Source: an uncultured Muribaculaceae bacterium (GTDB taxonomy: Bacteria; Bacillota_I; Bacilli_A; RF39; UBA660). Taken from it: 64,000 nt of DNA. Where the stretch lies: NCBI GenBank assembly GCA_964545885.1, contig CAZJHG010000003.1, forward strand, positions 1,474-65,473, given 5' to 3'. Under the pieces are notes generated by a model, which made no database searches, had not been told where the DNA came from, and worked only from the letters and a program-made list of their open reading frames with translations. Shown piece by piece: positions 21,839 through 59,903 of the stretch. A program made the position numbers and the translations under genes. Numbering within the stretch: the first letter of the stretch is position 1; every line of letters starts with the position of its first letter.

Positions 21839-23686
21839 ATGAAAAAATTGAAGTATTTTATATTTAGTTTAGTTTGCTTATTAAGTTGTAATATAGTATT
21901 TGCAGCAAACGAAGTAGTAATCAAAAGTATAACTGCAGTATATGATGAAGAAAGTGACATTTTAGTATCAGAAAAAGATAACTTACATAGTGTTACTTTC
22001 AACGATAAGAATCAAAAGGTTGAATACAAAGTTATAATAGAAAATACAACTGATGGAGATATATCCATAGCTGATATTAACTTATCTACTCCAACAGAAG
22101 AGTTTTTAAATTATGATATTTCCGGTATTTTAAAAGATGATGTATTATCTGCAAATGAAACAAAGGAATTCATAGTATCACTAGAAACTATTCAAATGGA
22201 TGGTTGGGGACGTAACTTTAATGATGAACTCCTAACAAGTATAGAATTTGCAAATCATATGACTAATTCAGATGCAATAGATTTTATAGCTAATCCAGAT
22301 ACAATAGATTTTATAGTTTGTATTGTTGGTCTAGCAGTTATATCTGCTTTAGTTTATATATCAACAAAAAAATATAAACATGGGAAATATATAGTTTTAG
22401 TAATAGGATTGGTATCTTTACTACCTATGGTTAAAGCTAAGGATTCTATAACTTTAAGTTTTAAAATAAATGCTAGTTTTGAATCACAAAATATTATGGA
22501 GACGAGATTTGAAGAACCGAAAATTTTTAGTTTAGGTTATGGTCCACCTAACTTAGGTGGGAAAGATTGTTGGAAATATGATGGATATATAAAAAACATA
22601 TATATACAAAACGAATTTAATGAAATAAAAGATTATGTGTATAAATATGATATATCGGAGTCAAAAAATGAGAAAGTAATTGCCTATTTAGTAAGAAACG
22701 AAGAAAATAATAAATATTATGATTTATATTTACAAGCCGATGGTATTATATATGCAAATCAAGATTCTCGTGGTTATTTTGCAGGAATGCAAAACCTTGA
22801 TAATATTGATAATCTAACAGGATTAGACACAAGTAACGTTACTGATATGAGCGCAATGTTTTATAATACTGGGTATTATAGCGATGTTTTTGCTTTGGAT
22901 TTAAGTGGTTTTAATACAAGTAAAGCTCTTTCAATGGATGGAATGTTTAATAATACAGGTTACAACAATTCTAACTTTACATTAGACTTAAGTAATTTTG
23001 ACACAAGTAACGTAACTAATATGTCTTATATGTTTTGGGCAACAGGCTACAACAGTTCCCGCTTCACATTAGATTTAAGCAGTTTCAATACAAGCAATGT
23101 AACAGATATGTCTAGTATGTTTTTTGAAACAGGGCATAATAGTACAAACTTTACATTAGATTTAAGCAATTTCGATACAAGCAATGTAACAGATATGTCT
23201 TATATGTTTTATGCTACAGGAGACTACAGTTCTAACTTTACATTAGATTTAAGCAGTTTCAATACAAGCAATGTAACAAATATGTCTAGTATGTTTATTT
23301 GCACAGGATACAAGAGTTCCAACTTTACTTTAGACTTAAGTAACTTCGATACAAGTAACGTAACTAATATGAGTTATATGTTTGATTCAACAGGCTACAG
23401 CAGTTCCCGCTTCACATTAGATTTAAGCAATTTCAATACAAGTAATGTAACAAAGATGAGTGGAATGTTCTCTAATACAGGGCATAATAGTACAAATTTT
23501 AACACTTCTATAACCATAAGCAATCCTAATGTTACTGATTATTATAGCATGTTTTATGAAACGGCAACAAAAACTGGTTCCAAAATAACAGTAAACTACA
23601 CTAGTGCTACAAGTTCTTTGGTAGACAAAATGATTGCTACTAAATCATCAAATTCCAATGTCATAAAAGGTGTACAAGTAGATTAA
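21839..23686 (+). CDS. Surface protein: signal peptide, beta-sandwich-like domain, internal anchor/signal module, DUF285/BspA-type leucine-rich repeats
   Basis: Signal peptide MKKLKYFIFSLVCLLSCNIVFA. About 9 repeats of the FTLDLSNFDTSNVTNMSYMF..TGY type. Two internal hydrophobic segments at aa 157-198. Confidence 0.85.
   Translation: MKKLKYFIFSLVCLLSCNIVFAANEVVIKSITAVYDEESDILVSEKDNLHSVTFNDKNQKVEYKVIIENTTDGDISIADINLSTPTEEFLNYDISGILKDDVLSANETKEFIVSLETIQMDGWGRNFNDELLTSIEFANHMTNSDAIDFIANPDTIDFIVCIVGLAVISALVYISTKKYKHGKYIVLVIGLVSLLPMVKAKDSITLSFKINASFESQNIMETRFEEPKIFSLGYGPPNLGGKDCWKYDGYIKNIYIQNEFNEIKDYVYKYDISESKNEKVIAYLVRNEENNKYYDLYLQADGIIYANQDSRGYFAGMQNLDNIDNLTGLDTSNVTDMSAMFYNTGYYSDVFALDLSGFNTSKALSMDGMFNNTGYNNSNFTLDLSNFDTSNVTNMSYMFWATGYNSSRFTLDLSSFNTSNVTDMSSMFFETGHNSTNFTLDLSNFDTSNVTDMSYMFYATGDYSSNFTLDLSSFNTSNVTNMSSMFICTGYKSSNFTLDLSNFDTSNVTNMSYMFDSTGYSSSRFTLDLSNFNTSNVTKMSGMFSNTGHNSTNFNTSITISNPNVTDYYSMFYETATKTGSKITVNYTSATSSLVDKMIATKSSNSNVIKGVQVD
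22802..23497 (+). repeat. Tandem 87-nt (29-aa) coding repeats with a 174-nt higher-order period
   Basis: Unit starts at 22802, 22889, 22976, 23063, 23150, 23237, 23324 and 23411. Alternate units pair up (SNFDTSNVT.MSYMF versus SSFNTSNVT.MSSMF). Confidence 0.9.
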
Positions 23687-23697
23687 TTAAAATATCA

Positions 23698-23734
23698 AGT
23701 ATGAATACGCAAACAAAGCATTCATACTTTTTTC
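23698..23734 (+). terminator. Rho-independent terminator
   Basis: aagtatgaat / attcatactt 10-bp stem followed by T6. Confidence 0.8.
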
Positions 23735-23804
23735 TTTGCAAAAATAAATATTGCCATTAAATCATAAAAATTATATAATAAATACAGAATAAGGTAGTGA
23801 TACT

Positions 23805-24419
23805 ATGCAAAGAAAATACATATATTTATTAGTTATAGTCTTAACCATAGTTCTTGTTGTATACAATCATTTTATCGGCTTGTCATCTACTAAGCCATCC
23901 GTAGAATTAGACAATAGCCCAGTTATTGAAGAAACTCAAAAGAATACTGAAGTTAAATATAATTTAAAAATAGATAATTATCAAAATGATGAAAAAGATA
24001 TAATCTATTCATATAAAATAACTATTCCTGAAATATCAGGAGCATATAAATATAGTAAAAATAACGAAGAATCATATTTAATATTTACTGCCAATGGTGA
24101 AGCAGAAGTAACTTTAAATAGTAATGATTCTTTAACAATCTATGAACTACCAGAAGGAATAAAATATAAGATAGAACAGATTACTGACGTAAGTGAAAAA
24201 TATACAACTAAGACCGATGAAACAAATGGAACAATTATTGAAGGAATTATCAGCGAAACTAACAATATTAAATTTACTAACGAAACAATTATTTCAGAAG
24301 AACCAGTAAAGAAAAATCCGTTCACTAGTGACAATCACTACTTAGCATTATTCGTTTTCATATATGCCGTAATTATAAGTATAGTAGCAACTAGAATAAA
24401 AGTTAAAAGGTTTGAATAA
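23805..24419 (+). CDS. Small pilin-like / Cna-B-like surface protein with C-terminal NPFTSD-TM-basic tail
   Basis: N-terminal signal or anchor. The core ANGEAEVTLNSNDSLTIYELPEGIKYKIEQ...YTT...IKFTNE resembles the Gram-positive pilin/Cna-B domain pattern. C-terminal tripartite signal. Confidence 0.6.
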   Translation: MQRKYIYLLVIVLTIVLVVYNHFIGLSSTKPSVELDNSPVIEETQKNTEVKYNLKIDNYQNDEKDIIYSYKITIPEISGAYKYSKNNEESYLIFTANGEAEVTLNSNDSLTIYELPEGIKYKIEQITDVSEKYTTKTDETNGTIIEGIISETNNIKFTNETIISEEPVKKNPFTSDNHYLALFVFIYAVIISIVATRIKVKRFE

Positions 24420-24431
24420 AGCCTTTTTTTC
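24407..24431 (+). terminator. Rho-independent terminator overlapping the stop codon
   Basis: aaggttt-gaata-aagcctt stem (one G.U pair) followed by T7. Confidence 0.55.
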
Positions 24432-24497
24432 TTTCCAAAAATTAACATTGTAAAATATAATTCTTTTAGTATAATAAGTAAACAAAGGAAGTTTACT

Positions 24498-25001
24498 ATG
24501 AAAAAACAAATACATATTATCCAAGGAATAATTATACTTCTTATAATATTTATAGCATTATTAATATCAATAAAATTTATTTACAAAATAAATAATGAAC
24601 AAGTAGATACATCATATATGTGGAATATTAATTTAACAAACTTAAAAATTACAGAAGGAAGTATAGAAGGTACAACAAAGTTAGAAAATAATACATTAAC
24701 TACTGAAGTAACTTTAAAGAAAGAAAAAGAATATTATGAATTTACTTTTGATATAGAAAATACAGGTACTTTAGATGCTATAATAGACAACATTAATTTA
24801 TTTGTAGACAATAAAAAAAATATTCTAACTTATAAAGTATCATATCTAGATGGCACATCACTAAATAAAGGAGATGTCTTAAAATCTAACACCAATAAAA
24901 CTATCTTAGTACGAATAGATTATCCTAAACAAACAAATAAAATATATGATGAATTAACTCTAAAAATAACATTAAGCTTAATATATAAAGCAATTTATTA
25001 A
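24498..25001 (+). CDS. Small N-terminally anchored protein, paralogous to the N-terminal domain of the 21839 protein
   Basis: EYYEFTFDIENTGTLDAIIDNINLF..ILTYKVS..GDVLKSNTNKTILV parallels VEYKVIIENTTDGDISIADINLS..FLNYDIS..DDVLSANETKEFIV. Confidence 0.6.
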   Translation: MKKQIHIIQGIIILLIIFIALLISIKFIYKINNEQVDTSYMWNINLTNLKITEGSIEGTTKLENNTLTTEVTLKKEKEYYEFTFDIENTGTLDAIIDNINLFVDNKKNILTYKVSYLDGTSLNKGDVLKSNTNKTILVRIDYPKQTNKIYDELTLKITLSLIYKAIY

Positions 25002-25060
25002 TATTGTATTTAACCTCTACTTATTATATAATTTAAAGTAGAAGGATAAAGGGTAGTAAG

Positions 25061-26203
25061 ATGAAACAAAGTATTAGTAAAAATATTAAAAGTACTATGT
25101 TAATACTTGAAATTATAGTATTTATTTATATAATATCTATCTTTATATTTAAAGATTATATAAGTACATTAATAAATCCTCTTAATGTGGCTTTTTTCAT
25201 GTTATTAACTTTTTTTTCAATATTATTACTCGGCTTTAAAAAAGCAAAAAAAAGTAAACTAAAAACTAAAATTAATAACATTTTTATAATAGTATCATCT
25301 GTATATTTAATAAGTATCTATTTATTAGGAAATGCTACTGGTTTTTATAATAATTCTTTTAGTATAAGTAATACTATATATCTTGTTTTATATTTAGTAT
25401 TAAGTGAAATATTTAGATATATCTTTATATCAAAATGTAATAAAACTACTAGTAATCAATATATAATGACCTTTTTATATGTATTATTTGATTTATTAGT
25501 TATCTCATCTTTAGGGCCTACTAATATTATAAAAATAACTGATATATTATCTCTAACATTTATCTCTTTAATAAAAAATTCTCTACTAAGTTATACAACA
25601 TATAAATATGGATATAAATCGTGTTATATATATTCTTTTATAATAGGCTTAATGCCTATAATTGCTCCAATATATCCTGATTTAAGCAATTATATTAATG
25701 TAGTATTCTCTCTAACTTATTCAGCTATTATTTTCTATAATATAAGTAAACCAAATAGAAAAGAAGAGGAAGAAACAGCAAACACTTATAAAAAGAATAT
25801 CTTATTTTATTTAGAAAGAGTTCTTTTAGTATTTATTATAATAATAATATTTTTAGTATCGGGCAATTTCAAGTATTCAATATCAGCTGTAGCATCTGAT
25901 TCTATGTATCCATATTTAAAAAAAGGTGATGCTATTATTCTTGAAAGAGTAGATGAAAAAAACCAAAATGAATTAATAAAAGGTGATGTAGTAGCATTTG
26001 AACAAGACGGAAAAATAGTAATTCATAGGATATTAACTATCGATACAATAGATGGTGAAGATTATATAACAACAAAAGGTGATAATAATAACACAAAAGA
26101 TGTACAAAAAAAGACAAAAGATGATATAATAGGAATAGTAAGATATAGGATTCCGTATATAGGCTATCCATCTATAGAAATATCTGAAACAAAGAATAAA
26201 TAA
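25061..26203 (+). CDS. SipW/Sec11-type (Ser-His) signal peptidase I fused to an N-terminal ~8-TM domain
   Basis: C-terminal ~135 aa carry SDSMYPYLKKGD (catalytic Ser box), VIHRIL (His box) and TKGDNN. The N-terminal ~245 aa are strongly hydrophobic with about 8 helices. Confidence 0.75.
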   Translation: MKQSISKNIKSTMLILEIIVFIYIISIFIFKDYISTLINPLNVAFFMLLTFFSILLLGFKKAKKSKLKTKINNIFIIVSSVYLISIYLLGNATGFYNNSFSISNTIYLVLYLVLSEIFRYIFISKCNKTTSNQYIMTFLYVLFDLLVISSLGPTNIIKITDILSLTFISLIKNSLLSYTTYKYGYKSCYIYSFIIGLMPIIAPIYPDLSNYINVVFSLTYSAIIFYNISKPNRKEEEETANTYKKNILFYLERVLLVFIIIIIFLVSGNFKYSISAVASDSMYPYLKKGDAIILERVDEKNQNELIKGDVVAFEQDGKIVIHRILTIDTIDGEDYITTKGDNNNTKDVQKKTKDDIIGIVRYRIPYIGYPSIEISETKNK

Positions 26204-26215
26204 GGAGTATGGGGT

Positions 26216-27145
26216 ATGAATAACAAAAAAACAATAACAATTTGCTCAATTATTGCTCTAGTAGTTCTTGCTATAGTTATAATAATTACCTTGATGTCTG
26301 ACTTAGTTGGCTTCAGTATCATATTAGGAACTCTATTTATAATTTTAACAGTTTGTCTAGGTATATATTTAAGAGAAGAACCTGATGAATATAGTTTATT
26401 TATAAAGAATAAAAAAAGGATTTTAAGAACTTACGATTCAATTATTGTTGAAGTAGAAGATATCCCTAATATAGCTGGTAAAAATATAATTAAAGTTAAA
26501 TCAATAGAGGATCTTGTAGATGCTCAATTAGAACTTAGAGAACCAATATATTATAAGAATGATAATGATTCTTGCTTCTTTATGTTATTACATTATAATG
26601 AAGCTTGTATATATATATTGAAAATGAATAGTGGAGTAGTATCACCAACTGAACAATCAATAAGGTATATGAAAGAAGATAAAGAAAGTAAGGAAACTTC
26701 TAATATTTTGGATAATGTTGAGAATACAATTGTATATAAGTTAGATGAACTAAGAAGTTTTAAAATTTCTCCAATTAGAAGTGAGCAAAAAATAGAAGTA
26801 ATCGATGATACTGCAATAAAAGAAGAGTTAGAAGAAGCCAAAGAACATCACATTACTAAAGAAACATTAGAAGATGAAATATCTAAGACAATGTATATCA
26901 ACGACTTAAAAGAAAAAATAAGACAGTTTGAAGAGGAAGAACTAGAAAAGGAAAGAGCTATTTCTAATACTCAAGAAATAAAAATAATTCCAGAAGAAAA
27001 AGTTAAGAGTAAGAAAAAAGAAACTGTTGTTAAAAACACAAAATCAACTACAGCTCAAACAAAGAAGACAACTAAAAAGAGTTCTACTCCTAAAAAAGTT
27101 ACTCACCAAACAAGACGTACTAGTAAGTATCAAAATAAAAAGTAA
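26216..27145 (+). CDS. Membrane protein with two N-terminal TM segments, a globular domain and a highly basic K/T-rich tail
   Basis: 309 aa starting 13 nt after the peptidase gene. The tail is KVKSKKKETVVKNTKSTTAQTKKTTKKSSTPKK. Confidence 0.6.
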   Translation: MNNKKTITICSIIALVVLAIVIIITLMSDLVGFSIILGTLFIILTVCLGIYLREEPDEYSLFIKNKKRILRTYDSIIVEVEDIPNIAGKNIIKVKSIEDLVDAQLELREPIYYKNDNDSCFFMLLHYNEACIYILKMNSGVVSPTEQSIRYMKEDKESKETSNILDNVENTIVYKLDELRSFKISPIRSEQKIEVIDDTAIKEELEEAKEHHITKETLEDEISKTMYINDLKEKIRQFEEEELEKERAISNTQEIKIIPEEKVKSKKKETVVKNTKSTTAQTKKTTKKSSTPKKVTHQTRRTSKYQNKK

Positions 27146-27147
27146 TT

Positions 27148-27172
27148 AAAGAATGAGCAATCATTCTTTTTT
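27148..27172 (+). terminator. Rho-independent terminator
   Basis: aaagaatga-gcaa-tcattcttt stem followed by a T run. Confidence 0.8.
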
Positions 27173-27245
27173 GAATAATTTAAAATTCATAAAGTAAATA
27201 TAAGCTAATTTATAGTCCATATTTATACAATGTAAAGAATTGATT

Positions 27246-27290
27246 TAAAAAAGTAAAATCATATTCTAAGCAATTGATTTTACTTTTTTT
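27246..27290. terminator. Second terminator-like hairpin (possible attenuator or sRNA 3' end)
   Basis: A6-agtaaaatca-13 nt-tgattttact-T6, sited 44 nt upstream of ATG 27334. Confidence 0.5.
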
Positions 27291-27333
27291 AGTAAGTATA
27301 CTAAAAATGAAAGAAATATTCGGAGGTAATAAA

Positions 27334-28053
27334 ATGAAAAAGAAATATTTTATGATAGCAGTGATAATCTTACTAACAATAATAAGCGCTATCACAGTAG
27401 TTAAAGTTATCACTGACTTAAAAAAAGAAACTAAAATAAAAAATGAAGTACAAAAAATAATTGAGATATTAGAATCAGACACAATAGATAAAACAGAATT
27501 GATAGATATATTAGATAGAAGAGTAGTTACTAAAGGCAACTATGTAGAAGTAGAAAACAGCATTAAATTATATTATAAAGATTTATATGATGATATAAGT
27601 AATCTAACATTTTTAATAAATGAAGATAATTATTCTAATTATTTAACGTCAGCTAATTTAAAAGAAGACAGACCAAATTTTATAAAATCTAAAGATAATC
27701 TTCAAAATACCGAAGCTCAAATTAACGAAGTATATACAGAATTAACTAATCAATTAACTGATAAATCAATAATTATGTCATATATAATAGATAAGGATGT
27801 TAAAACATATTACAAGGATTTTTATTATACTTTAGTAAAAGATTATATATCTGAAAATTGGCAAGAAGATTTATCTAGTAAAAAAAATATTACTTTAAAA
27901 ATAATTCAAACATATAATGAAGCATTAGATTTTCTAGTAGCTAACAAAGGTCATTGGAAACTTAATAACGATTTAATAACTTTTGATGATACAACTTTAT
28001 ATGAGGAATATTTATTAATAACAGGTAAACTAAAAGAAGCTAGTGATAATTAG
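27334..28053 (+). CDS. Hypothetical N-terminally anchored protein
   Basis: GGAGG RBS 8 nt before ATG 27334 (MKKKYFMIAVIILL...). The ORF-track start 27274 is an upstream extension through the hairpin. Confidence 0.6.
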   Translation: MKKKYFMIAVIILLTIISAITVVKVITDLKKETKIKNEVQKIIEILESDTIDKTELIDILDRRVVTKGNYVEVENSIKLYYKDLYDDISNLTFLINEDNYSNYLTSANLKEDRPNFIKSKDNLQNTEAQINEVYTELTNQLTDKSIIMSYIIDKDVKTYYKDFYYTLVKDYISENWQEDLSSKKNITLKIIQTYNEALDFLVANKGHWKLNNDLITFDDTTLYEEYLLITGKLKEASDN

Positions 28054-28059
28054 CTTCTT

Positions 28060-28590
28060 TTAAAATTCTATTTTAATTTCTTTGGTATCAAATCTAAGTG
28101 GTTCAATAGGCTTATAGTCGAACAAGTATGCCATCAAATTAGTAGGGAATGTCTGAATCTTAGTATTATATTTATTTATATCCGTAGAATAAATTCTTCT
28201 AGCAGCTTCGATTTCACTTTCTACTTTAGATAGTTCATTTTGTAAATTTAAATATAGTTCACTAGCTTTCAAATCAGGATATTTTTCTACTAAAGAAATA
28301 CATTTATTATAGTAAGAATTTAATTTATCTCTATCATCAGCACTACCTGTTTCTTCAAAACTATTTCGAAGTTTAACTATTTCCTCTAGTGTTTCCTTTT
28401 CATGCCTACTATAAGCTTTAACGCATTCTACTAAGTTAGGTATCAAATCAAATCTCTTTTTTAAATAAATATCTACTAAGGAACTAGCTCTTTCTACTTT
28501 TTTATAAGACCTTACTAAAGAATTATATATTAATATAAATATTACAATAAATATTAGTAAGACTATTAAACACCATACAAATATATCCAT
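28060..28590 (-). CDS. lemA: LemA-family protein
   Basis: One N-terminal TM segment, then YNSLV..VE..SLVDIYLKKRFDLIPNLVECVKAYSRHEKETLEEI, the LemA signature. GAGAGG RBS before ATG 28590. Confidence 0.85.
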   Translation of the reverse strand: MDIFVWCLIVLLIFIVIFILIYNSLVRSYKKVERASSLVDIYLKKRFDLIPNLVECVKAYSRHEKETLEEIVKLRNSFEETGSADDRDKLNSYYNKCISLVEKYPDLKASELYLNLQNELSKVESEIEAARRIYSTDINKYNTKIQTFPTNLMAYLFDYKPIEPLRFDTKEIKIEF

Positions 28591-28594
28591 ATTA

Positions 28595-29647
28595 TTACCT
28601 CTCAATTTCATCTAATTTATTTATTATTTCTTCTATAATTTCAGTCATACCATCTAACATTTTAAAATAGTAAGCAATACTTAAAGCTTCTTTTTTTATG
28701 TCGTTTGGATGTGGTTCAAATAATGAATCGCTATGGAACCTAAAAAATAACAATCCTTTAATTAATCTAAATTCATAAAAATAACCAAAATTATTATATA
28801 ATTCTAATATTTTATTTGTTAAAGACGGAGTCAATATTCTAAGTGCAGTAATCTTATCGGAAGTAAAAACATCATATTTTTCTTCAAATAGTTGATTATC
28901 TAATTCTACATAGTCTTTTTTATCAAATAATTTTAATTTATCAGTTGCAATAATTAATGAAAAGTCATTAAACTTATTAAGTTCTATAACTGCAACCGGT
29001 CCAAAAAATAATGTACGGCTAGAAGAATTACCATCACTATCAGTAGATTCTCTTTCTGTATGAACATCTGATAGTGAAAACTTATATCCCAAAATATTTC
29101 CAGTTATCAAGTCTTCAGAGCGATAATCACTATACCCCTCAAAATTACCAATTTTATATATTTGAGAAGAAATCCCTTCATTCGGATTATATTGCCACTC
29201 ACTATTATAATTTTTTATAACTGCTTTTATTATTTGTTCTCTATATACTTTTGAATAATTAGCTGATGATACTGCCTTCCAAATAAGTGAGAAAATAAAT
29301 GTAGTCCAACACGCAGCAAATAAAACAATCCAATCATAAAATAATAAAGATATCTCAATTACAATAATAAATATAATGAATATATATAAATTTATTCTTT
29401 TGTGTTTCTTTCTCTTTTTATCTAACACTTGATTATTAGTCAGAATATTTATATAATTTTGAATATCATATTGTTTTTCTTTCAGTACTTCATTATATAT
29501 TTTTTCTTTAGCTTTTTTTGAAGCTTTTGCTTCCTTAACCAACTTTACAATATCATAAATAAAGAATACAAGCCACGCTATCGTAACGAAAGATTGAAAT
29601 AAAAAAACTCCTAAATTATCAAAACTCATATACCACCAAATTTCCAA
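28595..29647 (-). CDS. DUF3137-like membrane protein (LemA partner)
   Basis: TM segments, then YREQIIKAVIKNY..W.YNP..GIS...EDLITG..GYKFSLSDV...FFGPV. The family assignment is from memory. Its stop lies 4 nt before the lemA start. Confidence 0.55.
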   Translation of the reverse strand: MEIWWYMSFDNLGVFLFQSFVTIAWLVFFIYDIVKLVKEAKASKKAKEKIYNEVLKEKQYDIQNYINILTNNQVLDKKRKKHKRINLYIFIIFIIVIEISLLFYDWIVLFAACWTTFIFSLIWKAVSSANYSKVYREQIIKAVIKNYNSEWQYNPNEGISSQIYKIGNFEGYSDYRSEDLITGNILGYKFSLSDVHTERESTDSDGNSSSRTLFFGPVAVIELNKFNDFSLIIATDKLKLFDKKDYVELDNQLFEEKYDVFTSDKITALRILTPSLTNKILELYNNFGYFYEFRLIKGLLFFRFHSDSLFEPHPNDIKKEALSIAYYFKMLDGMTEIIEEIINKLDEIER

Positions 29648-29784
29648 TATTATCTATATCTATTTTATCATAAATTATATTTAATATTATTTAAATATAC
29701 ATAAATTAATTAATTATTTTTAATAATTTCATCACATATTATTAATATAATTAGTTTAAAATGAAATAAGAAAGGAAAATTTAT

Positions 29785-30459
29785 ATGTCAATTGTATATA
29801 TATTATTAATTATATCTTTAGCTATAACATTAGGTTCTCAGTTATATGTAACCTCAACCTATAAAAAGTATATTAAAGTAAAATCATCTTCTAACCTAAC
29901 TGGAGCCGAAGCAGCACGTCAAGTATTGGACAGTAATGGTTTAAGTAATATTAAAGTAGTTGAAACTAAAGGATATTTATCAGACCATTATGACCCATCT
30001 AAGAAAATAGTTGCTTTATCTAGTAGCAATTATCATAATGCTAGTATTGGAGCTGTCTCAGTAGCTTGTCATGAATGTGGTCACGCAATACAAGATAAAG
30101 ATAATTATACTTTTATGCGTATTCGCTCCTCGTTAGTACCTGTCGTTAATTTTTCTTCGTATGCCGGCTATGTAGCTATGGTACTTGGTATTTTATTTAG
30201 TTCACTAAATCTAATTTGGTTAGGTATCTTTGCTGAAGTTGCTATTCTTATATTTCAACTTGTTACATTACCAGTAGAATTTGATGCTAGTAAAAGAGCT
30301 CTAAAAGAGATAGAAAAATATAATATCTTAAATGATAACGAATTAAAAGAAGGTAAAACAGTTCTAACATCAGCTGCTTTAACATATGTTGCTAGTGTTG
30401 CCACTACAATAATAGAAATTCTTAGATTAATATTAGTCTATGGTAGAAGGGATGATTAA
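29785..30459 (+). CDS. YugP-type membrane zinc metallopeptidase (Zn_peptidase_2 family)
   Basis: GAEAARQVLD, LSDHYDP, HECGHAIQ (HExxH), and C-terminal TM helices. Confidence 0.8.
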   Translation: MSIVYILLIISLAITLGSQLYVTSTYKKYIKVKSSSNLTGAEAARQVLDSNGLSNIKVVETKGYLSDHYDPSKKIVALSSSNYHNASIGAVSVACHECGHAIQDKDNYTFMRIRSSLVPVVNFSSYAGYVAMVLGILFSSLNLIWLGIFAEVAILIFQLVTLPVEFDASKRALKEIEKYNILNDNELKEGKTVLTSAALTYVASVATTIIEILRLILVYGRRDD

Positions 30460-30461
30460 TT

Positions 30462-30932
30462 ATGAATTTTAACAATGGTGAATTGCCGTCGTTTAAAACT
30501 CTTTTTAATTATTTGGTTGATTCATTAAATAAATTTCTTTTGGTATTACTAATAATTATAGTGATATTATCTATATTTATATCAAACTTCTTTATAGATT
30601 TGTCAAAATTTATTATTATAGGAATCATTATCTTTCGTATGGTATCTAAAAATAAAATTCAAAGAAACAAAGAAAATAAAATGTTTTTAAAAATCAAATC
30701 AACAATTTTAAAACCATTCAATAGTATTATAAGAAACTTTAAAGATAGAAAAAAATATGTTTACAAAAAATGTTCTAAATGTAAAACAATATTGAAACTA
30801 CCTTTACCAAATAAAATAGGCATTAACCATGCTAAATGTCCAAATTGCCATAATAGAGTTACACTTTTTACTCTAAGAAAAAAACATCCCGAAAAAATAA
30901 AAGTTGAAGTTATAAAAAAGAAGGTAAGCTAG
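30462..30932 (+). CDS. Membrane protein with C-terminal zinc ribbon
   Basis: Two TM segments, then CSKCKT...CPNCHN. Starts 2 nt after the yugP-like stop. Confidence 0.6.
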   Translation: MNFNNGELPSFKTLFNYLVDSLNKFLLVLLIIIVILSIFISNFFIDLSKFIIIGIIIFRMVSKNKIQRNKENKMFLKIKSTILKPFNSIIRNFKDRKKYVYKKCSKCKTILKLPLPNKIGINHAKCPNCHNRVTLFTLRKKHPEKIKVEVIKKKVS

Positions 30933-30950
30933 AAATAGCTTATTTTTCTA

Positions 30951-31011
30951 TTGACTTACAATATTATAAAAAGTTAAAATTATTATAGATAGTAGAGGAG
31001 TGTAGTTTCAT
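30951..31011 (+). promoter_or_regulatory. Promoter plus leader: TTGACT-18 nt-TAAAAT, then the same 21-nt block TATAGATAGTAGAGGAGTGTA
   Basis: -35 at 30951-30956, -10 at 30975-30980, block at 30984-31004. Geometry is identical to 21782-21838. Confidence 0.7.
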
Positions 31012-33126
31012 ATGAAAAAGTATAAGAAAAGTATTTTATTTTTACTATTTATTTTAATACCTTTTGTGGTTTCAGCTCGTAATTTGGAAGATCTAGAATT
31101 AAAATGGACTGATGAAATAGAAGATGATGGTTATATTTTTAATCCAGTTACTGAGTTGGATCCTAAATATGCAGAATATAATCATGGATATAATGAAAGT
31201 AAATTTATCGAAACAGATGAAGGTTATCTTATTATAGGTAATTCTAGCTTTAATTTGTATGATAGAAACAAGGGATTAGTTAAATCAGTTAGTGCTGGTT
31301 ATAATCATCAATATATTGAGGATGGAAATAATTATATAGTAATTGGCAAAAATTATGATAATTATTCTGCTAACATTAAAATAGTAACATCTGAGTTAGA
31401 TGTTCTTGCTGAATATGATTTTTCTATGTGTTCGATTTTTAATTTTTTTATTAAAGATGATTCTTTGGTTGTTGTTTATGAAGAGTGTGATAGTGATGGT
31501 TATTATTTAAATTCACTAGTTTTAGAAAAAGAAACATTAAAAGAAAAACATTCTTCAAAAATCTTTACTTTGAAAACTACTTATAATTACTTTTATGAGG
31601 CTAAAATATATAGAGACGATTATTATAATTATTACTATTTAGATAAAGATTTTAATATTGTACCAGATAATTTGAATGATGATAGTTCTTATTTTATCTC
31701 TGATGATAATTATTTGTACTTGTTTGATAAAAGCGGGAAAGAGTTGAAGTCAATTAATATTGAGCTGTCAGATAATTATTCGCGTTACTATTGGGATAAA
31801 ACTCCTGTAAGAAAGTATAATAATTTTTATTATGTTTTTAGCAATGAATATAAGTATGATGCAGTAACAAAAAAATATTTACATAGAGTTGTATATTATA
31901 AATATGACAATGATTTTAGATTAGTTGATACTAAAATTTTAACAGGTGAACCTACGAGTAGGAGTGATTCTTATAATGCTAGGTTATATTTAAATAAAAA
32001 AGGTTTATTTATTTACTATAGTTATAATAATCAATACTATAAAATAGAAGATGATTTTAGTTTTACAACTTCAGATAGTTCGTACATGTATGACGAAATA
32101 GAAAAAAATATTGATTACCCGAATGTACCAAAAATTAATAATCAATTAAATGCTTATTTTATGGTTTATGAATATCTTGATGCTCTTGCTTCTGATAAAG
32201 AAGAAAAGTTAGAAAAAGATTTAAGCGATAATGATAATGCATATATTTCTTTTTCATATGATACATATTATGATGAAGATAACGAACAATTAATAATAGC
32301 TGTTACTTGGTTAGAAGAATTATATATAAATGGAAATTACACAGATTATACTGAAGCAGAACTAATTTACTTAGATGAAGAAAATTATGAATCACCAACA
32401 ATAGTTACTTTAGTTGAAAGGTCAAAATATACTGGTTCAAATTATCTTTATACTGAAAATATTGGCGCGAAGATGTATGTTGATGAAGATAATATCATCG
32501 TTGCTCTTAGCTTAGGCAATAAAATAATGACTAATATCTATGATAGAGAAGGAAAACTAATTAAAACACTATCTGAGAAAAAAATTAAAGGACTGTCACC
32601 TCAAATGGTTAGTTATAATGCTGGAAGATTACTTGTCATTTTTAGTATGTATCCAGAACCAGTGGCTCCAAATAATAATTCAGTTAACTTTACTGGTAAT
32701 ATTACTAATTTTATACCAGATGCTAAATTGACTGTGTATATTCCAGGTATAGATGGTGTTGCTTCATACTCATATATTGAATATTATGAAACACCATTTA
32801 ATATTACAATTAAGACAGATGGTAATGGAACAATAGAGTCTACTAAAGTAAAAGCATCATCTGGAGATGAAATTAAATTTACTATAACACCTAAAGAAGG
32901 ATATGTTCTTAGCGTAGTTAAAGTAACTGATTCTAGTGGTAATGTTGTAACATTTAAAGACAATACGTTTACAATGCCTTCATCAGATGTAACAATTGAG
33001 GCTACATTTGTACCAGAAAACCCTAATACTGTAGATGCTGCAATAATAGCTAGTATTGCAGTAATCATCTGTGGTAGCATAGGTATTATTTATAGCATAA
33101 GAAAAATTAAATGGTTAAATATTTAA
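31012..33126 (+). CDS. Large Y/N/D-rich surface protein with a divergent InlB-B-repeat-like domain and a C-terminal NPNTVD-TM-basic tail
   Basis: Signal peptide. The segment ITIKTDGNGTIESTKVKASSGDEIKFTITPKEGYVLSVVKV..TFTMPSSDVTIEATF resembles the Flg_new_2 pattern. C-terminal tripartite signal. Confidence 0.75.
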   Translation: MKKYKKSILFLLFILIPFVVSARNLEDLELKWTDEIEDDGYIFNPVTELDPKYAEYNHGYNESKFIETDEGYLIIGNSSFNLYDRNKGLVKSVSAGYNHQYIEDGNNYIVIGKNYDNYSANIKIVTSELDVLAEYDFSMCSIFNFFIKDDSLVVVYEECDSDGYYLNSLVLEKETLKEKHSSKIFTLKTTYNYFYEAKIYRDDYYNYYYLDKDFNIVPDNLNDDSSYFISDDNYLYLFDKSGKELKSINIELSDNYSRYYWDKTPVRKYNNFYYVFSNEYKYDAVTKKYLHRVVYYKYDNDFRLVDTKILTGEPTSRSDSYNARLYLNKKGLFIYYSYNNQYYKIEDDFSFTTSDSSYMYDEIEKNIDYPNVPKINNQLNAYFMVYEYLDALASDKEEKLEKDLSDNDNAYISFSYDTYYDEDNEQLIIAVTWLEELYINGNYTDYTEAELIYLDEENYESPTIVTLVERSKYTGSNYLYTENIGAKMYVDEDNIIVALSLGNKIMTNIYDREGKLIKTLSEKKIKGLSPQMVSYNAGRLLVIFSMYPEPVAPNNNSVNFTGNITNFIPDAKLTVYIPGIDGVASYSYIEYYETPFNITIKTDGNGTIESTKVKASSGDEIKFTITPKEGYVLSVVKVTDSSGNVVTFKDNTFTMPSSDVTIEATFVPENPNTVDAAIIASIAVIICGSIGIIYSIRKIKWLNI

Positions 33127-34407: not shown

Positions 34408-35274
34408 ATGCAAGAAACATCATTATCAGAACAAATCAAAAAAAGAGGATATAAAATACCTAAAATAATTATTCCTTCACAAGAACTATTATCTATAAAA
34501 GAAGTCATCGACAAAGAAAAGCACACAAATGTTAAGCTTAATAAAAGAAACTTAAAATATATATTAGATAGAACTCATTCATTTCTTGATAGCCATTTTT
34601 GTCTATATGATGTTCCTTTTTATAGTGAAAATAGACTTGGTCCAATAAAAATAGAAAAATACGGAACAATTCATCCATATGGTTTACCAATTACTAAAGT
34701 AAAGGGAGAAGACACTTTTTACGGTTGCTTAAGAGAAGTAATTGATTATAAAGATGATAAAATAATTAACTATTCTTATCGTGGAATAGAATTATCTAAA
34801 AATTTAACAGAATTATCTTCACTATCATATACACATGAAATTGTTCATTCAGAATTAAATCACGTTAAAGGTATTGTAAAAGAATACTCTAATATAGAAT
34901 TTCTTAGTATTTTCTTAGAAACTCTTCAAGCTTATGAAACATCTCAAGATTTACTTATAATACATGATCAAGAAAGATTATTAGAACTCTCAGGAATTAT
35001 TAAAGAACTAAAAGAATACCATTCAACAACAGATTCTCAAATAAAAGATGTTCTAATAGAAGGAAGTTCCTATGCTGAATCTACTTTAAAAGCTTACGCT
35101 TTATTTATAAAGTATTATAATAGTTCTTCTCAAGTAAAAAAAGAAATATTAAGTTCTATTCAAAAAATATTTAATTATGAGTTATCAGTAGAAGAATTTC
35201 TTATGAAATACGATATTACATTTTCTGAAAGTCTAGATTCAATAACAATAAAAAGTTATTTAAAAAGGAGGTAA
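34408..35274 (+). CDS. Uncharacterised HExxH protein, paralogue 1 of 3
   Basis: SLSYTHEIVHSELNHVKGIVKEYSNIEFLSIFLE, with HEIVH starting at nt 34834. No signal peptide. Confidence 0.7.
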   Translation: MQETSLSEQIKKRGYKIPKIIIPSQELLSIKEVIDKEKHTNVKLNKRNLKYILDRTHSFLDSHFCLYDVPFYSENRLGPIKIEKYGTIHPYGLPITKVKGEDTFYGCLREVIDYKDDKIINYSYRGIELSKNLTELSSLSYTHEIVHSELNHVKGIVKEYSNIEFLSIFLETLQAYETSQDLLIIHDQERLLELSGIIKELKEYHSTTDSQIKDVLIEGSSYAESTLKAYALFIKYYNSSSQVKKEILSSIQKIFNYELSVEEFLMKYDITFSESLDSITIKSYLKRR

Positions 35275-35278
35275 TTAT

Positions 35279-36148
35279 ATGACTCAAATTAGTAAAGATG
35301 ATGAAATAATTAAAAGAGCATTAAATCCTAATCCAGAAATAATAAATCCTAGTGATGAATTATTAGATAGTTTAACTCAATATAGTATGCTACCGATAGC
35401 TAATAAGGATTACGAAGTACACCGAATGTCTATTAATAATGCTTTATATGATGCTCAAACTTTTTTATTATATTATTACAATTTACATAAGGTACCAACA
35501 GTTAATATTCATAAATTACTAGGTCATCAAATCCATATTGGTAAATCAGTTAGCCCATTAAAATTACCAGTAAATCTAGTACCAAATGATGACATATTTT
35601 CAGGATCAGTAACAGAAGTCTTAACCAATAGAGAACCACATATTATCTTTCGTGAAATAAATTTAAATATTCAAACTACCGAGCAAACATCATCTTCTTA
35701 TATTCACGAAGTAACTCATACTCAAATAGATCGTTTAAAAGGAGCTGTAAAAGAATATTATAATCTGGAAATAATAAGTATTTTTAATGAACTATTTCAT
35801 GCTTCTATTTTAGATAGTGATGAAAGAATATTAAGACTAAATGATTCAAGGCGTATTAATGAAATGACAGTTACAGCCCAAGAATTAAGAGATTATCATG
35901 ATGGTAAAAGTACTATGAATCGTGATGAATTACTAGATTGCTGTAAATATTTAATATCAGATTTACAAGCTTACCAATTATTTGTTACTTTTTATAATAG
36001 TACAGAGTATACCAAAAATGAGATTATAGATGATATTCAAACTATTTTTGATGGTTATATGACAGTCGAAGAATTACTTGATAAATATGAAATCACCTTA
36101 GAACCAGATGAAGATGAAAAAAAATTATTAAAATATTTTAATAGATAG
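35279..36148 (+). CDS. Uncharacterised HExxH protein, paralogue 2 of 3
   Basis: SSSYIHEVTHTQIDRLKGAVKEYYNLEIISIFNE. Strong AGGAGG RBS. 4-nt gap from paralogue 1. Confidence 0.7.
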   Translation: MTQISKDDEIIKRALNPNPEIINPSDELLDSLTQYSMLPIANKDYEVHRMSINNALYDAQTFLLYYYNLHKVPTVNIHKLLGHQIHIGKSVSPLKLPVNLVPNDDIFSGSVTEVLTNREPHIIFREINLNIQTTEQTSSSYIHEVTHTQIDRLKGAVKEYYNLEIISIFNELFHASILDSDERILRLNDSRRINEMTVTAQELRDYHDGKSTMNRDELLDCCKYLISDLQAYQLFVTFYNSTEYTKNEIIDDIQTIFDGYMTVEELLDKYEITLEPDEDEKKLLKYFNR

Positions 36149-36157
36149 AGTGATAAT

Positions 36158-37093
36158 ATGTATAAAATAATTGATAAAGATAAAGAATTAATGGTCCATG
36201 GTCATGAGTCTCTAAAAGAAATTTTAACTCCTCCAAAAGAATTAATTGATTTTATAAACTTTATTGAAGATTTAGAAATAGAAAAAAGGCCATTCTATCT
36301 AGGACCATCTACCAAAGAAACTTCAATAAAAGAAGCCCAAAACTTTTTTAATACAAAATTTAAATTACATAAAGTTCCCTACAAAGGAGAAATACGTTGT
36401 TCTCTAGACTATTACATTTTAAAATATATACCAGGTATTGAAATACCTTTAAAATTACATAATGTTTCTAGATATGTTCATCCATTTGACTTACCAATAA
36501 GATATACTGAAGATGATCAACCAGACTGCATGGTAGTAGAAAATATAACATATATGAACACTGAGTCTTTTCTAAATAGAATGATAATATCATATAAAGA
36601 GATTGTTTTACCATCTAATATAACAGAATTGACATCAAGTTCATATGTCCATGAAATAACTCATACTCAACTTTCCCATATAAAAGGTATAATCAAAGAT
36701 TATTATAATTCAGAAGTACTAAGTATTTTCTTAGAAATATTAAATGTTTATGAATCTAATAATAGTAATCGTTTACTACCTTTACAAGACGCTTGCAGAC
36801 TACTAGAAATAAAAGAAGACTTAAATATATTAATAACTCATCATAATGGAGTAATTATTTCCAAAGAAGAAGATTTAATAGATGCTTCTAAGTATTCAAT
36901 ATCAATTTTAAAAGCTTATGGCTTATTTATTGAATATATAAATGGATCTTCGTCTTTAAAAAAATATATTCTAACTTGTATCCAAAATATTTTTAATGGT
37001 GATTTATGTTTAGAAGAATTACTTGATGAGTTTGAATTAATACCTGAACGTATTACTAAAGATGAAAAAGTCTTATCATATTTTTCAAGATAA
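36158..37093 (+). CDS. Uncharacterised HExxH protein, paralogue 3 of 3
   Basis: SSSYVHEITHTQLSHIKGIIKDYYNSEVLSIFLE. 9-nt gap from paralogue 2. Confidence 0.7.
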   Translation: MYKIIDKDKELMVHGHESLKEILTPPKELIDFINFIEDLEIEKRPFYLGPSTKETSIKEAQNFFNTKFKLHKVPYKGEIRCSLDYYILKYIPGIEIPLKLHNVSRYVHPFDLPIRYTEDDQPDCMVVENITYMNTESFLNRMIISYKEIVLPSNITELTSSSYVHEITHTQLSHIKGIIKDYYNSEVLSIFLEILNVYESNNSNRLLPLQDACRLLEIKEDLNILITHHNGVIISKEEDLIDASKYSISILKAYGLFIEYINGSSSLKKYILTCIQNIFNGDLCLEELLDEFELIPERITKDEKVLSYFSR

Positions 37094-59528: not shown

Positions 59529-59903
59529 ATGAGTAATAATTTAGATGCTATAAGACGTCGTATTGAGTGTGAACAAGAAAAAATGCCGAAGCAAGGATGT
59601 TGTTGTAATTTTAGAACGCAAACAAGTGGAATAACTGGCCCAACTGGCCCACAAGGAGCAACAGGTCCAACCGGTCCCACAGGTCCAACCGGACCACAAG
59701 GTGAAACTGGACCAACTGGTTTAACTCCAACATTAACAATAGGTGAAGTTACAACTGGCGACCCAGGTAGCACAGCAACAGCATCAATTACCGGAACATC
59801 ACCAGACTTTGTACTTAACTTAACAATACCTCAAGGTCCAACTGGACCAACAGGTCCTCAAGGAGAAACTGGTCCAACCGGTCCAACAGGGCCTTCGTCT
59901 TAG
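59529..59903 (+). CDS. Short collagen-like (Gly-X-Thr triple-helix repeat) protein
   Basis: [31 protein letters not shown], a ~37-aa non-collagen insert, then [20 protein letters not shown]. The N-terminus has CCC. Locally GC-rich. Confidence 0.75.

Follow-up and report, generated by a model that had tools for sequence, protein, structure and literature searches.

We analysed a window of 64,000 nucleotides (nt) from an uncultured Muribaculaceae bacterium (GTDB lineage Bacillota_I; Bacilli_A; RF39; UBA660; assembly GCA_964545885.1), a low-GC organism of gut type, and in particular three surface-protein open reading frames (ORFs) on its + strand, here called P0001, P0002 and P0003, that carry NPxT-type tags. 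The window is part of contig CAZJHG010000003.1 (C3) in an assembly of 1.54 Mb, 99 contigs and 28.6% G+C; because this assembly is only 66% complete, all genome counts given below are floors. P0001 (21839..23686) encodes a 615-residue precursor with a putative N-proximal sorting signal and a DUF285/PARCEL passenger. P0002 (23805..24419) encodes 204 residues with an N-terminal hydrophobic segment, a DUF7601 domain (nt 23976-24284; Pfam) and a predicted C-terminal sorting signal (24315..24416), which consists of NPFTSD (24315-24332; residues 171-176 of 204), a hydrophobic segment (24333-24392) and the basic tail RIKVKRFE (24393-24416). P0003 (31012..33126) encodes a surface protein of 704 residues with a signal peptide, a Flg_new_2 (InlB B-repeat-like) domain (nt 32800-33015; Pfam) and, again at the C-terminus, a predicted sorting signal (33019..33123) made of NPNTVD (33019-33036; residues 670-675 of 704), a hydrophobic segment (33037-33099) and the basic tail RKIKWLNI (33100-33123). 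A signal-peptide-like hydrophobic N-terminus was found in all three proteins. The original prediction, which had been made from the letters of the window, placed NPDTID at nt 22292, NPFTSD at nt 24315 and NPNTVD at nt 33019, and the three motifs were recovered at exactly these coordinates. It further described each motif as followed by a helix and a basic tail, the architecture of a sortase substrate. This tripartite build, behind a signal peptide, was supported for all three, with 18-21 hydrophobic residues followed by KKYKHGK, RIKVKRFE or RKIKWLNI; in the case of NPDTID, what comes after the basic stretch is not the C-terminus but another hydrophobic segment, which ends V-K-A.

To describe the motif at the scale of the genome, we used a crude set of 1406 ORFs (468,109 amino acids), in which NPxT occurs 97 times. 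Twenty-two of these occurrences lie 25-45 residues from the C-terminus, compared to approximately 5.9 expected; three of them (on contigs C7, C43 and C45) were removed by eye because the hydrophobic stretch was missing, which left 19 tails. A formal filter, requiring a hydrophobic 15-mer no more than 12 residues after the motif and then at least two K/R, was passed by 23 of the 97 NPxT occurrences (18 C-terminal and 5 internal) and by only 27 of 665 xPxT occurrences with another first residue, seven of which are other evident sorting signals (LPETG, LPSTG, IPKTG, IPNTG, EPPTG, LPPNT and APQTG). The proteome scan that the original prediction had proposed thus showed that NPxT with a membrane segment and K/R residues is enriched genome-wide. 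Only the positional scan yielded the 19th C-terminal tail, located on contig C71; this tail is similar to that of C27 and was missed by the hydrophobicity-filtered scans. In all 19 tails the Asn of the motif stands 31-39 residues from the C-terminus, and 17 of the 19 proteins have a signal-peptide-like N-terminus, the remaining two having a truncated or unclear start. The Pfam domains on these proteins (Cna_B in five, SdrD_B together with MucBP, MucBP alone, DUF7601, and Flg_new_2 in ten) form a repertoire typical of wall-anchored adhesins.

Twelve of the 19 tail proteins share a C-terminal Flg_new_2 end that can be aligned as a single family, with 31-59% identity to P0003. In this family the motif never varies at N, P and T; these paralogues were chosen from the NPxT list, and their invariance is therefore no independent test. 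The independent test of conservation was a profile built from the alignment of the 12 paralogues and run on other genomes. This profile matched in 21 of 24 other genomes of the same genus and in none of 16 genomes of other families. Furthermore, N-P-x-T was kept in 27 of the 28 relatives' loci fetched by the domain profile, the exception being APETLD. In the 18 own C-terminal tails, the residue before Asn is E (8), K (5) or D (3), and the middle residue of the motif is N, D or E in 15. The residue directly after the putative cut is nearly free (S4, V3, T3, K2, Y2, G1, A1, R1 and F1), and the next one is mostly D (9) or A (6), with D in 21 of 27 relatives' tails. Judged from these tails, the signal is best written [E/K/D]-N-P-x-T-x-[D/A], of which NPxTxD is the majority form. 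The extreme C-terminus often reads [KR]-x-[KN]-[WF]-L-x; [WF]-L falls within the last four residues in 4 of the 18 own tails and in 17 of the 27 relatives' tails, a set in which one paralogue family is over-represented. In the internal-signal proteins, the basic loop likewise ends K-[YF] ahead of the second helix. A reading of NPxT as an N-glycosylation sequon was also considered and was ruled out, as Pro after Asn excludes N-x-S/T, an established rule.

The genome encodes four sortase-domain proteins (PF04203), two on contig C17, one on C14 and one on C2; with the window on C3, the earlier statement that the window has no sortase gene was borne out. The C14 sortase (C14:12673-14217; 514 residues) is a class B sortase, scoring 169 bits against TIGR03064 (cut-off 153.75). 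Its closest solved relatives are structures of Bacillus anthracis SrtB (1rz2 and 2oqw; E 2.7e-34), with which its catalytic residues align (H in 'yahnr', C in 'lstc' and R in 'qrfvvha'). The C2 sortase (295 residues) is a divergent class B-like enzyme with 78.6 bits against TIGR03064, below the cut-off, and a Tyr at the position of the catalytic Arg. It adjoins an adhesin of 1727 residues with a VWA domain and five MucBP domains that ends in LPPNT, as well as a serine recombinase (C2:43464-49938); the C2 sortase and the LPPNT adhesin look like a private pair, and they may be a mobile sortase-substrate pair. On contig C17 (C17:8565-15002) there is a pilus-type locus with a class C sortase, a small sortase of 195 residues and three proteins ending in LPETG, LPSTG and IPKTG.

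Class B sortase matches were found in all 24 other genomes of the same genus and in only one of 16 genomes from other families. Of the 149 other genomes scored in an even sample across the class, 28 have a class B sortase. These counts bear on the suggestion, made in the original prediction, that the motif may mark the substrates of a dedicated, possibly uncharacterised sorting enzyme, here taken as one outside the known sortase classes. Such an enzyme would suit a motif with a free residue after the cut, which is matched neither by NCBIfam nor by the regular expressions in use (NPxTG and NPQTN, as given in the part of PMC9210967 that deals with them), and the gene for it may be missing from an assembly that is 66% complete. 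We consider it highly improbable, however, because class B sortases are present and conserved in all 24 genomes scored in the genus, the core and flanks of the motif fit class B, and no candidate for an alternative sorting enzyme was found near the genes examined. In addition, the proposed inventory of enzymes returned class B sortases (C14 and C2) and no exosortase match in the assembly, while the rhombosortase model gave only two generic rhomboids below the cut-off and also matched in all 14 control genomes.

The co-occurrence of tail and enzyme was followed beyond the genus with a tail-only profile. This profile is noisy: most of its matches above E 1e-3 span the membrane segment alone and were disregarded. 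An NPxT tail was read in five genomes outside the genus (G091, G046, G117, G150 and G048, with NPETAD, NPNTSD, NPQTGAF, NPNTYR and NPQTGN, respectively), and all five have a class B sortase above the cut-off, compared to 28 of 149 overall. In the family sample, the sortase was present in five of five tail-positive genomes, and a tail match was present in none of four sortase-negative genomes. The co-occurrence test suggested by the original prediction thus showed that NPxT tails track the presence of class B sortase among kin genomes. Furthermore, we inspected 21 loci from 20 other genera that encode the long, C14-like form of the sortase, whose additional N-terminal part is described below; a neighbouring gene ends in NPxTG in nine of them and in TPDTG or NPPSD in two. 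Gene adjacency is the strongest link of the NPxT signal to class B sortase.

The motif had originally been placed outside the known sortase classes, and in this respect the reading was not supported: N-P-x-T is the class B core. The passages on signals in a review (PMC5148588) give the class B signal as NPXTN, and NPxTG with an NPQTN variant is among the motifs used for anchor finding in the relevant part of PMC9210967. For B. anthracis SrtB acting around NPKTG, the portion of PMC11987632 on this enzyme reports a requirement for Asp at the second residue past the cut and a contribution from Asp before Asn. The tails studied here agree with the class B core N-P-x-[T/S]; with E, K or D before Asn in 16 of 18 own tails, and D two residues past the cut in 9 of 18 own and 21 of 27 relatives' tails, they also fit these flanking preferences.

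The IsdC class B substrates of B. anthracis (DNPKTGDE) and Staphylococcus aureus (NPQTN) resemble the NPxT tails in the N-P-x-T core with a hydrophobic segment and a basic tail, and in the acidic residue before Asn and the Asp two after the cut (PMC11987632, in its account of IsdC). They differ in that a single haem-uptake protein is concerned there, whereas here a general signal occurs on at least 24 proteins of many families; in addition, the middle residue is K or Q there and N, D or E here, and the residue after the cut is nearly free here (S, V, T, K, Y, G, A, R or F). SrtB of Clostridioides difficile has the motif (S/P)PxTG, in which, unlike in the NPxT tails, Gly is kept after the cut and Asn is missing, and we know of no cytoplasmic extension of this enzyme. 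The likeness is that, there too, general anchoring of several adhesin-like proteins falls to a class B enzyme: C. difficile SrtB, a housekeeping class B sortase, is described as the single sortase of its organism in the section concerned of PMC4155245, and as having several suspected substrates in that of PMC11987632.

Several observations weigh against the assignment of the tails to a class B sortase. Characterised class B substrates have G, N or S directly behind the cut; only 5 of the 18 own tails do, and such freedom is undocumented for a single sortase. None of the three window genes is adjoined by a sortase gene, the neighbour of the C14 sortase gene in its own genome ends in EPPTG and not in NPxT, and 10 of the 21 long-form loci have no signal-bearing neighbour within the 1.5-kb flanks. 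The co-occurrence genomes are kin, so that the counts overstate independence, and at most 49 candidates per genome were scored with the tail-only profile, which makes its counts floors. Genome G091 has its NPETAD tail with only a sortase B frame of 300 residues; the long form is thus not required. NCBIfam and Pfam scans of P0001-P0003 found no sorting-signal model, the tails being without an NCBIfam match at E ≤ 1, although short sorting-signal models may be lost to the HMMER filters. Moreover, three of the 61 database homologues of the internal module of P0001 (P0182, P0185 and P0186) have the Ig-like domain and the hairpin with a long acidic low-complexity spacer and no NPxT.

Part of this evidence would suit tails that are plain, uncleaved membrane anchors, with NPxT as a conserved juxtamembrane element (a helix cap or linker) independent of sortase. 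The great variability of the residue after the putative cut, the missing NCBIfam match and the hairpins without NPxT all agree with such anchors. What makes them improbable, in our judgement, is that families without relation to each other (Cna_B, MucBP, Flg_new_2, DUF7601 and DUF285) carry an invariant N-P-x-T whose distance from the C-terminus is fixed, that the motif is the class B core with the flanking Asp preference of B. anthracis SrtB, and that it tracks class B sortase presence and is gene-linked to class B sortase in sister genera. Taken together, these results indicate that the three tails are most probably class-B-type sortase signals for sorting to the cell wall; this is the best explanation of the whole, including the route proposed for P0001 below. 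P0002 and P0003 would then be ordinary C-terminal substrates, exported by Sec with removal of the signal peptide and held in the membrane by the tail, until a class B sortase, as expected from its family, cuts after Thr and transfers them to a peptidoglycan precursor. The acting enzyme is most likely the class B sortase of 514 residues on C14, or a paralogue missing from the 66%-complete assembly. Some lineage-specific flavour remains in the near-free residue after the cut, the lack of an NCBIfam match to the tails and the unusual cytoplasmic domain on the likely sortase.

The internal position of NPDTID had been recognised in the original prediction, and the conserved separate architecture to which it belongs had been overlooked. 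P0001 starts with a signal peptide (21839..21904; residues 1-22, ending V-F-A), followed by a beta-sandwich (Ig-like) domain (21914..22255; residues 26-139), the class-B-type motif NPDTID (22292..22309; residues 152-157) in a low-confidence linker, membrane helix 1 (22310..22363; residues 158-175), the basic, predicted cytoplasmic loop TKKYKHGK (22364..22387; residues 176-183), membrane helix 2 (22388..22438), which resembles a second signal peptide and ends V-K-A, and the passenger (22439..23683), composed of a conserved beta strand and DUF285/PARCEL repeats (PF03382, E 2.2e-54; TIGR02167, E 3.4e-47). Hydrophobic segments were found at residues 7-21, 158-172 and 184-198, and V-K-A occupies residues 198-200. 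AlphaFold2 (AF2), run on the module alignment (mean predicted local distance difference test score, pLDDT, 74), gave a beta-sandwich of strands only at residues 26-139 (pLDDT 72-93, mostly 81-93), a disordered linker with NPDT, and helices at residues 158-176 and 182-194, the second of which is followed by a strand. A Foldseek search with the N-terminal module returned only generic Ig-like, MSP and PapD-like folds (best E 1e-4, low template modelling (TM) scores) and no specific assignment.

The same layout, in which NPxT at residues 125-152 precedes a helix, a basic loop and another hydrophobic segment, occurs in five own ORFs, of which four have a DUF285 passenger and one a Flg_new_2 passenger. 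In an alignment of 14 modules (5 own and 9 from relatives, 14-41% identical to P0001), N-P-x-T is present in 14 of 14, and the invariant columns are N, P and the closing Ala of the second segment (Ala200 in P0001). The second helix ends x-A in all 14, with V, I, A, F, L or Y two residues before the Ala. Of 26 other genomes of the same genus, 9 gave full-length matches to a profile of the module (E ~2e-24 or better), with up to 13 per genome, in open frames of 311-3007 residues save two fragmentary ones in short frames. All 15 of the relatives' loci that were fetched have N-P-x-T, helix, basic loop and second helix, as read with a regular expression without a fixed N, and the same holds for 58 of 61 other matching proteins in the protein database, whose passengers include DUF285, DUF6273, LRR_5, GDSL lipase, Flg_new and Cna_B. 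This conservation led us to reject the idea that NPDTID is an artefact of a sequencing, assembly or stop-codon error that joined two neighbouring genes, one for a small anchored protein and one for a DUF285 protein. The basic loop with helix 2 does resemble the start of an independent signal peptide; the layout, however, is uninterrupted in the five own ORFs, in 15 of 15 loci from nine relatives' genomes and in 58 of 61 database proteins, and there is no start codon at the junction, which leaves such a fusion with next to no probability. Among the homologues P0126-P0176, most have a conserved [IL]-C-K-C-[EDN] with two Cys right after the predicted V-Y-A site; P0001 and its close paralogues have K-D-x-I in its place.

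As to how such a precursor might be processed, helix 1 of P0001 would stop translocation, and helix 2 would restart export as an internal signal peptide, after which signal peptidase would cut after V-x-A; the sortase would attach the small Ig-like domain to the wall. By analogy with the streptococcal IgA1/Zmp proteases, one precursor would thereby give a wall-anchored domain and a separate exported passenger, which may be released, kept on the hairpin or bound to the anchored domain. Another possibility, confined to P0001, is that the sortase cuts NPDT and helix 2 stays uncut, so that the passenger is tethered by the hairpin of helix 1, loop and helix 2. The V-x-A cleavage is deduced solely from conserved small residues, and the three of 61 homologues that have the hairpin without NPxT show that it can exist as a plain membrane anchor, a role that a tethered passenger would use. 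The Ala ending helix 2, on the other hand, is invariant in 14 modules, with V, I, A, F, L or Y two residues before it, a pattern that fits the -3/-1 rule of signal peptidase, and for the streptococcal precedent, a second signal-peptidase site in the equivalent position is proposed in the part of PMC3518915 that covers it. A tethered passenger is thus possible and, on this evidence, rather unlikely.

For the N-terminal layout of LPXTG, the primary paper is said to be that of Bender and Weiser in 2006. For the streptococcal IgA1 protease and ZmpB/C/D, the passages of PMC3518915 on these proteases describe a signal peptide, LPXTG, two hydrophobic segments and a putative second signal-peptidase site; localisation is said there to require the atypical N-terminal position of LPXTG. 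P0001 shares with them the signal peptide, the N-proximal sortase motif, the two hydrophobic segments, the second signal-peptidase-like site and the large passenger. The differences are that the motif is of class B type (NPxT) here and LPXTG there, that a folded Ig-like domain of approximately 115 residues lies between signal peptide and motif here, and that the passenger is a metalloprotease there and DUF285/PARCEL, DUF6273, LRR_5, GDSL lipase or Flg_new here. P0001 thus appears to work alike but is no member of the Zmp family, with which it has no sequence relation. A literature search, mostly outside subscription journals, found no description of a class-B-type N-proximal signal or of DUF285 proteins with one.

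The likely enzyme has an unusual architecture of its own. In a usual class B sortase, the catalytic domain directly follows a short N-terminal membrane anchor, and the whole protein has approximately 220-280 residues. The C14 sortase, in contrast, has a single hydrophobic segment at residues 275-293, preceded by 274 residues without a hydrophobic stretch, which should be cytoplasmic by type II topology. AF2 modelled this N-terminal part as beta-alpha repeats (pLDDT 88), and the best Foldseek matches were the leucine-rich repeat (LRR) domains of NLRP3, SKP2, tropomodulin and ribonuclease inhibitor (E 1e-4 to 3e-3), with low TM-scores of 0.2-0.25. No Pfam model for this part was found. It has 374 database homologues; among the 120 listed, 119 are proteins of 510-649 residues with a sortase domain, and one is named a class B sortase from a Candidatus Coprovivens metagenome-assembled genome of the class Bacilli. 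The part is highly conserved; 20 of the 60 other genera in the family have it, in every case within a frame of 516-592 residues. A literature search, again mostly outside subscription journals, found no LRR-fused sortase described.

A conserved cytoplasmic LRR-like domain raises the question of whether the sortase is positioned, or its substrates are selected, from inside the cell. It is speculation that this domain reads substrate tails from the cytoplasmic side. The tails of the sortase neighbours end in a K-[ILF]-[YFH]-[KR]-[IV]-like pattern. A complex prediction for the full-length long-form sortase with a tail of 41 residues, run without controls, scored 0.02 against a mark of 0.32 and counts neither for nor against such a contact. 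One could go further and combine a two-product anchoring, in which the wall-anchored Ig-like domain serves as a 'dock' and the freed passenger, such as a PARCEL adhesin or a lipase, is held by binding to it, with a two-sided reading of substrates by the housekeeping class B sortase, namely NPxT-x-D outside and the conserved aromatic tail motifs K-[WF]-L or K-[ILF]-[YFH]-[KR]-[IV] inside via the LRR-like domain. We regard this combined scheme as unlikely. If true, cytoplasmic reading of the tail could explain how the residue after the cut became free.

The genes 3' of P0002, also on the + strand, form a context of their own (24498..27145), with a secreted protein of 167 residues, a signal peptidase and a DUF5305 protein. 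The signal peptidase (25061-26203) is a SipW-type signal peptidase I (TIGR02228, 87 bits, cut-off 51.85) with a polytopic N-terminal part; seven hydrophobic 19-mers were counted in it, the last of which (residues 247-265) lies at the start of the peptidase match. The DUF5305 protein (26216-27145) matches PF17231 (E 7.7e-11). Together with a protein of 259 residues, this set (24498-28053) resembles AbpX/TasA-type fibril loci. Loci of this kind carry a polytopic signal peptidase I and a DUF5305 accessory protein, and the bacterial ones often add a wall-anchor protein, as stated in a 2026 preprint (10.64898/2026.01.04.697558). The P0002 locus is alike in the order of P0002, small secreted protein, polytopic SipW-type peptidase and DUF5305 protein; it differs in that the anchor signal is NPFTSD and not LPXTG, and in that no subunit matches TasA/camelysin by Pfam. 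For the neighbours of 167 and 259 residues, no Pfam or NCBIfam match was found, TasA/camelysin included, and the nearest named cluster of the 167-residue protein in a language-model atlas, camelysin/Peptidase_M73 at 0.93, is a weak lead only. P0002 may be the wall-anchored base of an AbpX/TasA-like fibre, which we offer as a lead and not as a finding.

Three further observations were made in the window and the assembly. Three tandem paralogous ORFs of 288, 289 and 311 residues (window 34408-37093) have similar C-terminal ends and no Pfam family. An ORF of 124 residues (window 59529-59903) ends in collagen-like G-P-T/G-P-Q triplet repeats. On contig C39 (C39:12490-13170), an ORF of 226 residues ends in APQTGD with an Ala/Leu/Arg-rich tail that sets it apart from the rest of this low-GC genome; a contaminating contig may be its source (assembly contamination 2.7%).

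Collectively, these results partly support the original prediction: the tails are probably sortase substrates, of the known class B kind. They are distinctive in the freedom of the residue that follows the cut, in the module of N-proximal signal and hairpin, and in the fusion of the likely sortase to an LRR-like domain. Motif rules (LPxTG, NPxTG and NPQTN) underlie the surface-protein inventories of uncultured gut Bacilli, and such rules would miss most of the at least 24 candidate wall-anchored proteins here, hence much of the adhesin set. A sortase with a near-free residue after the cut could be useful for protein ligation, if the biochemistry holds. The N-proximal signal with its hairpin appears to be no streptococcal curiosity but a reusable delivery module, paired with a class B motif in 58 of 61 other database matches and with at least six kinds of passenger across the matches.

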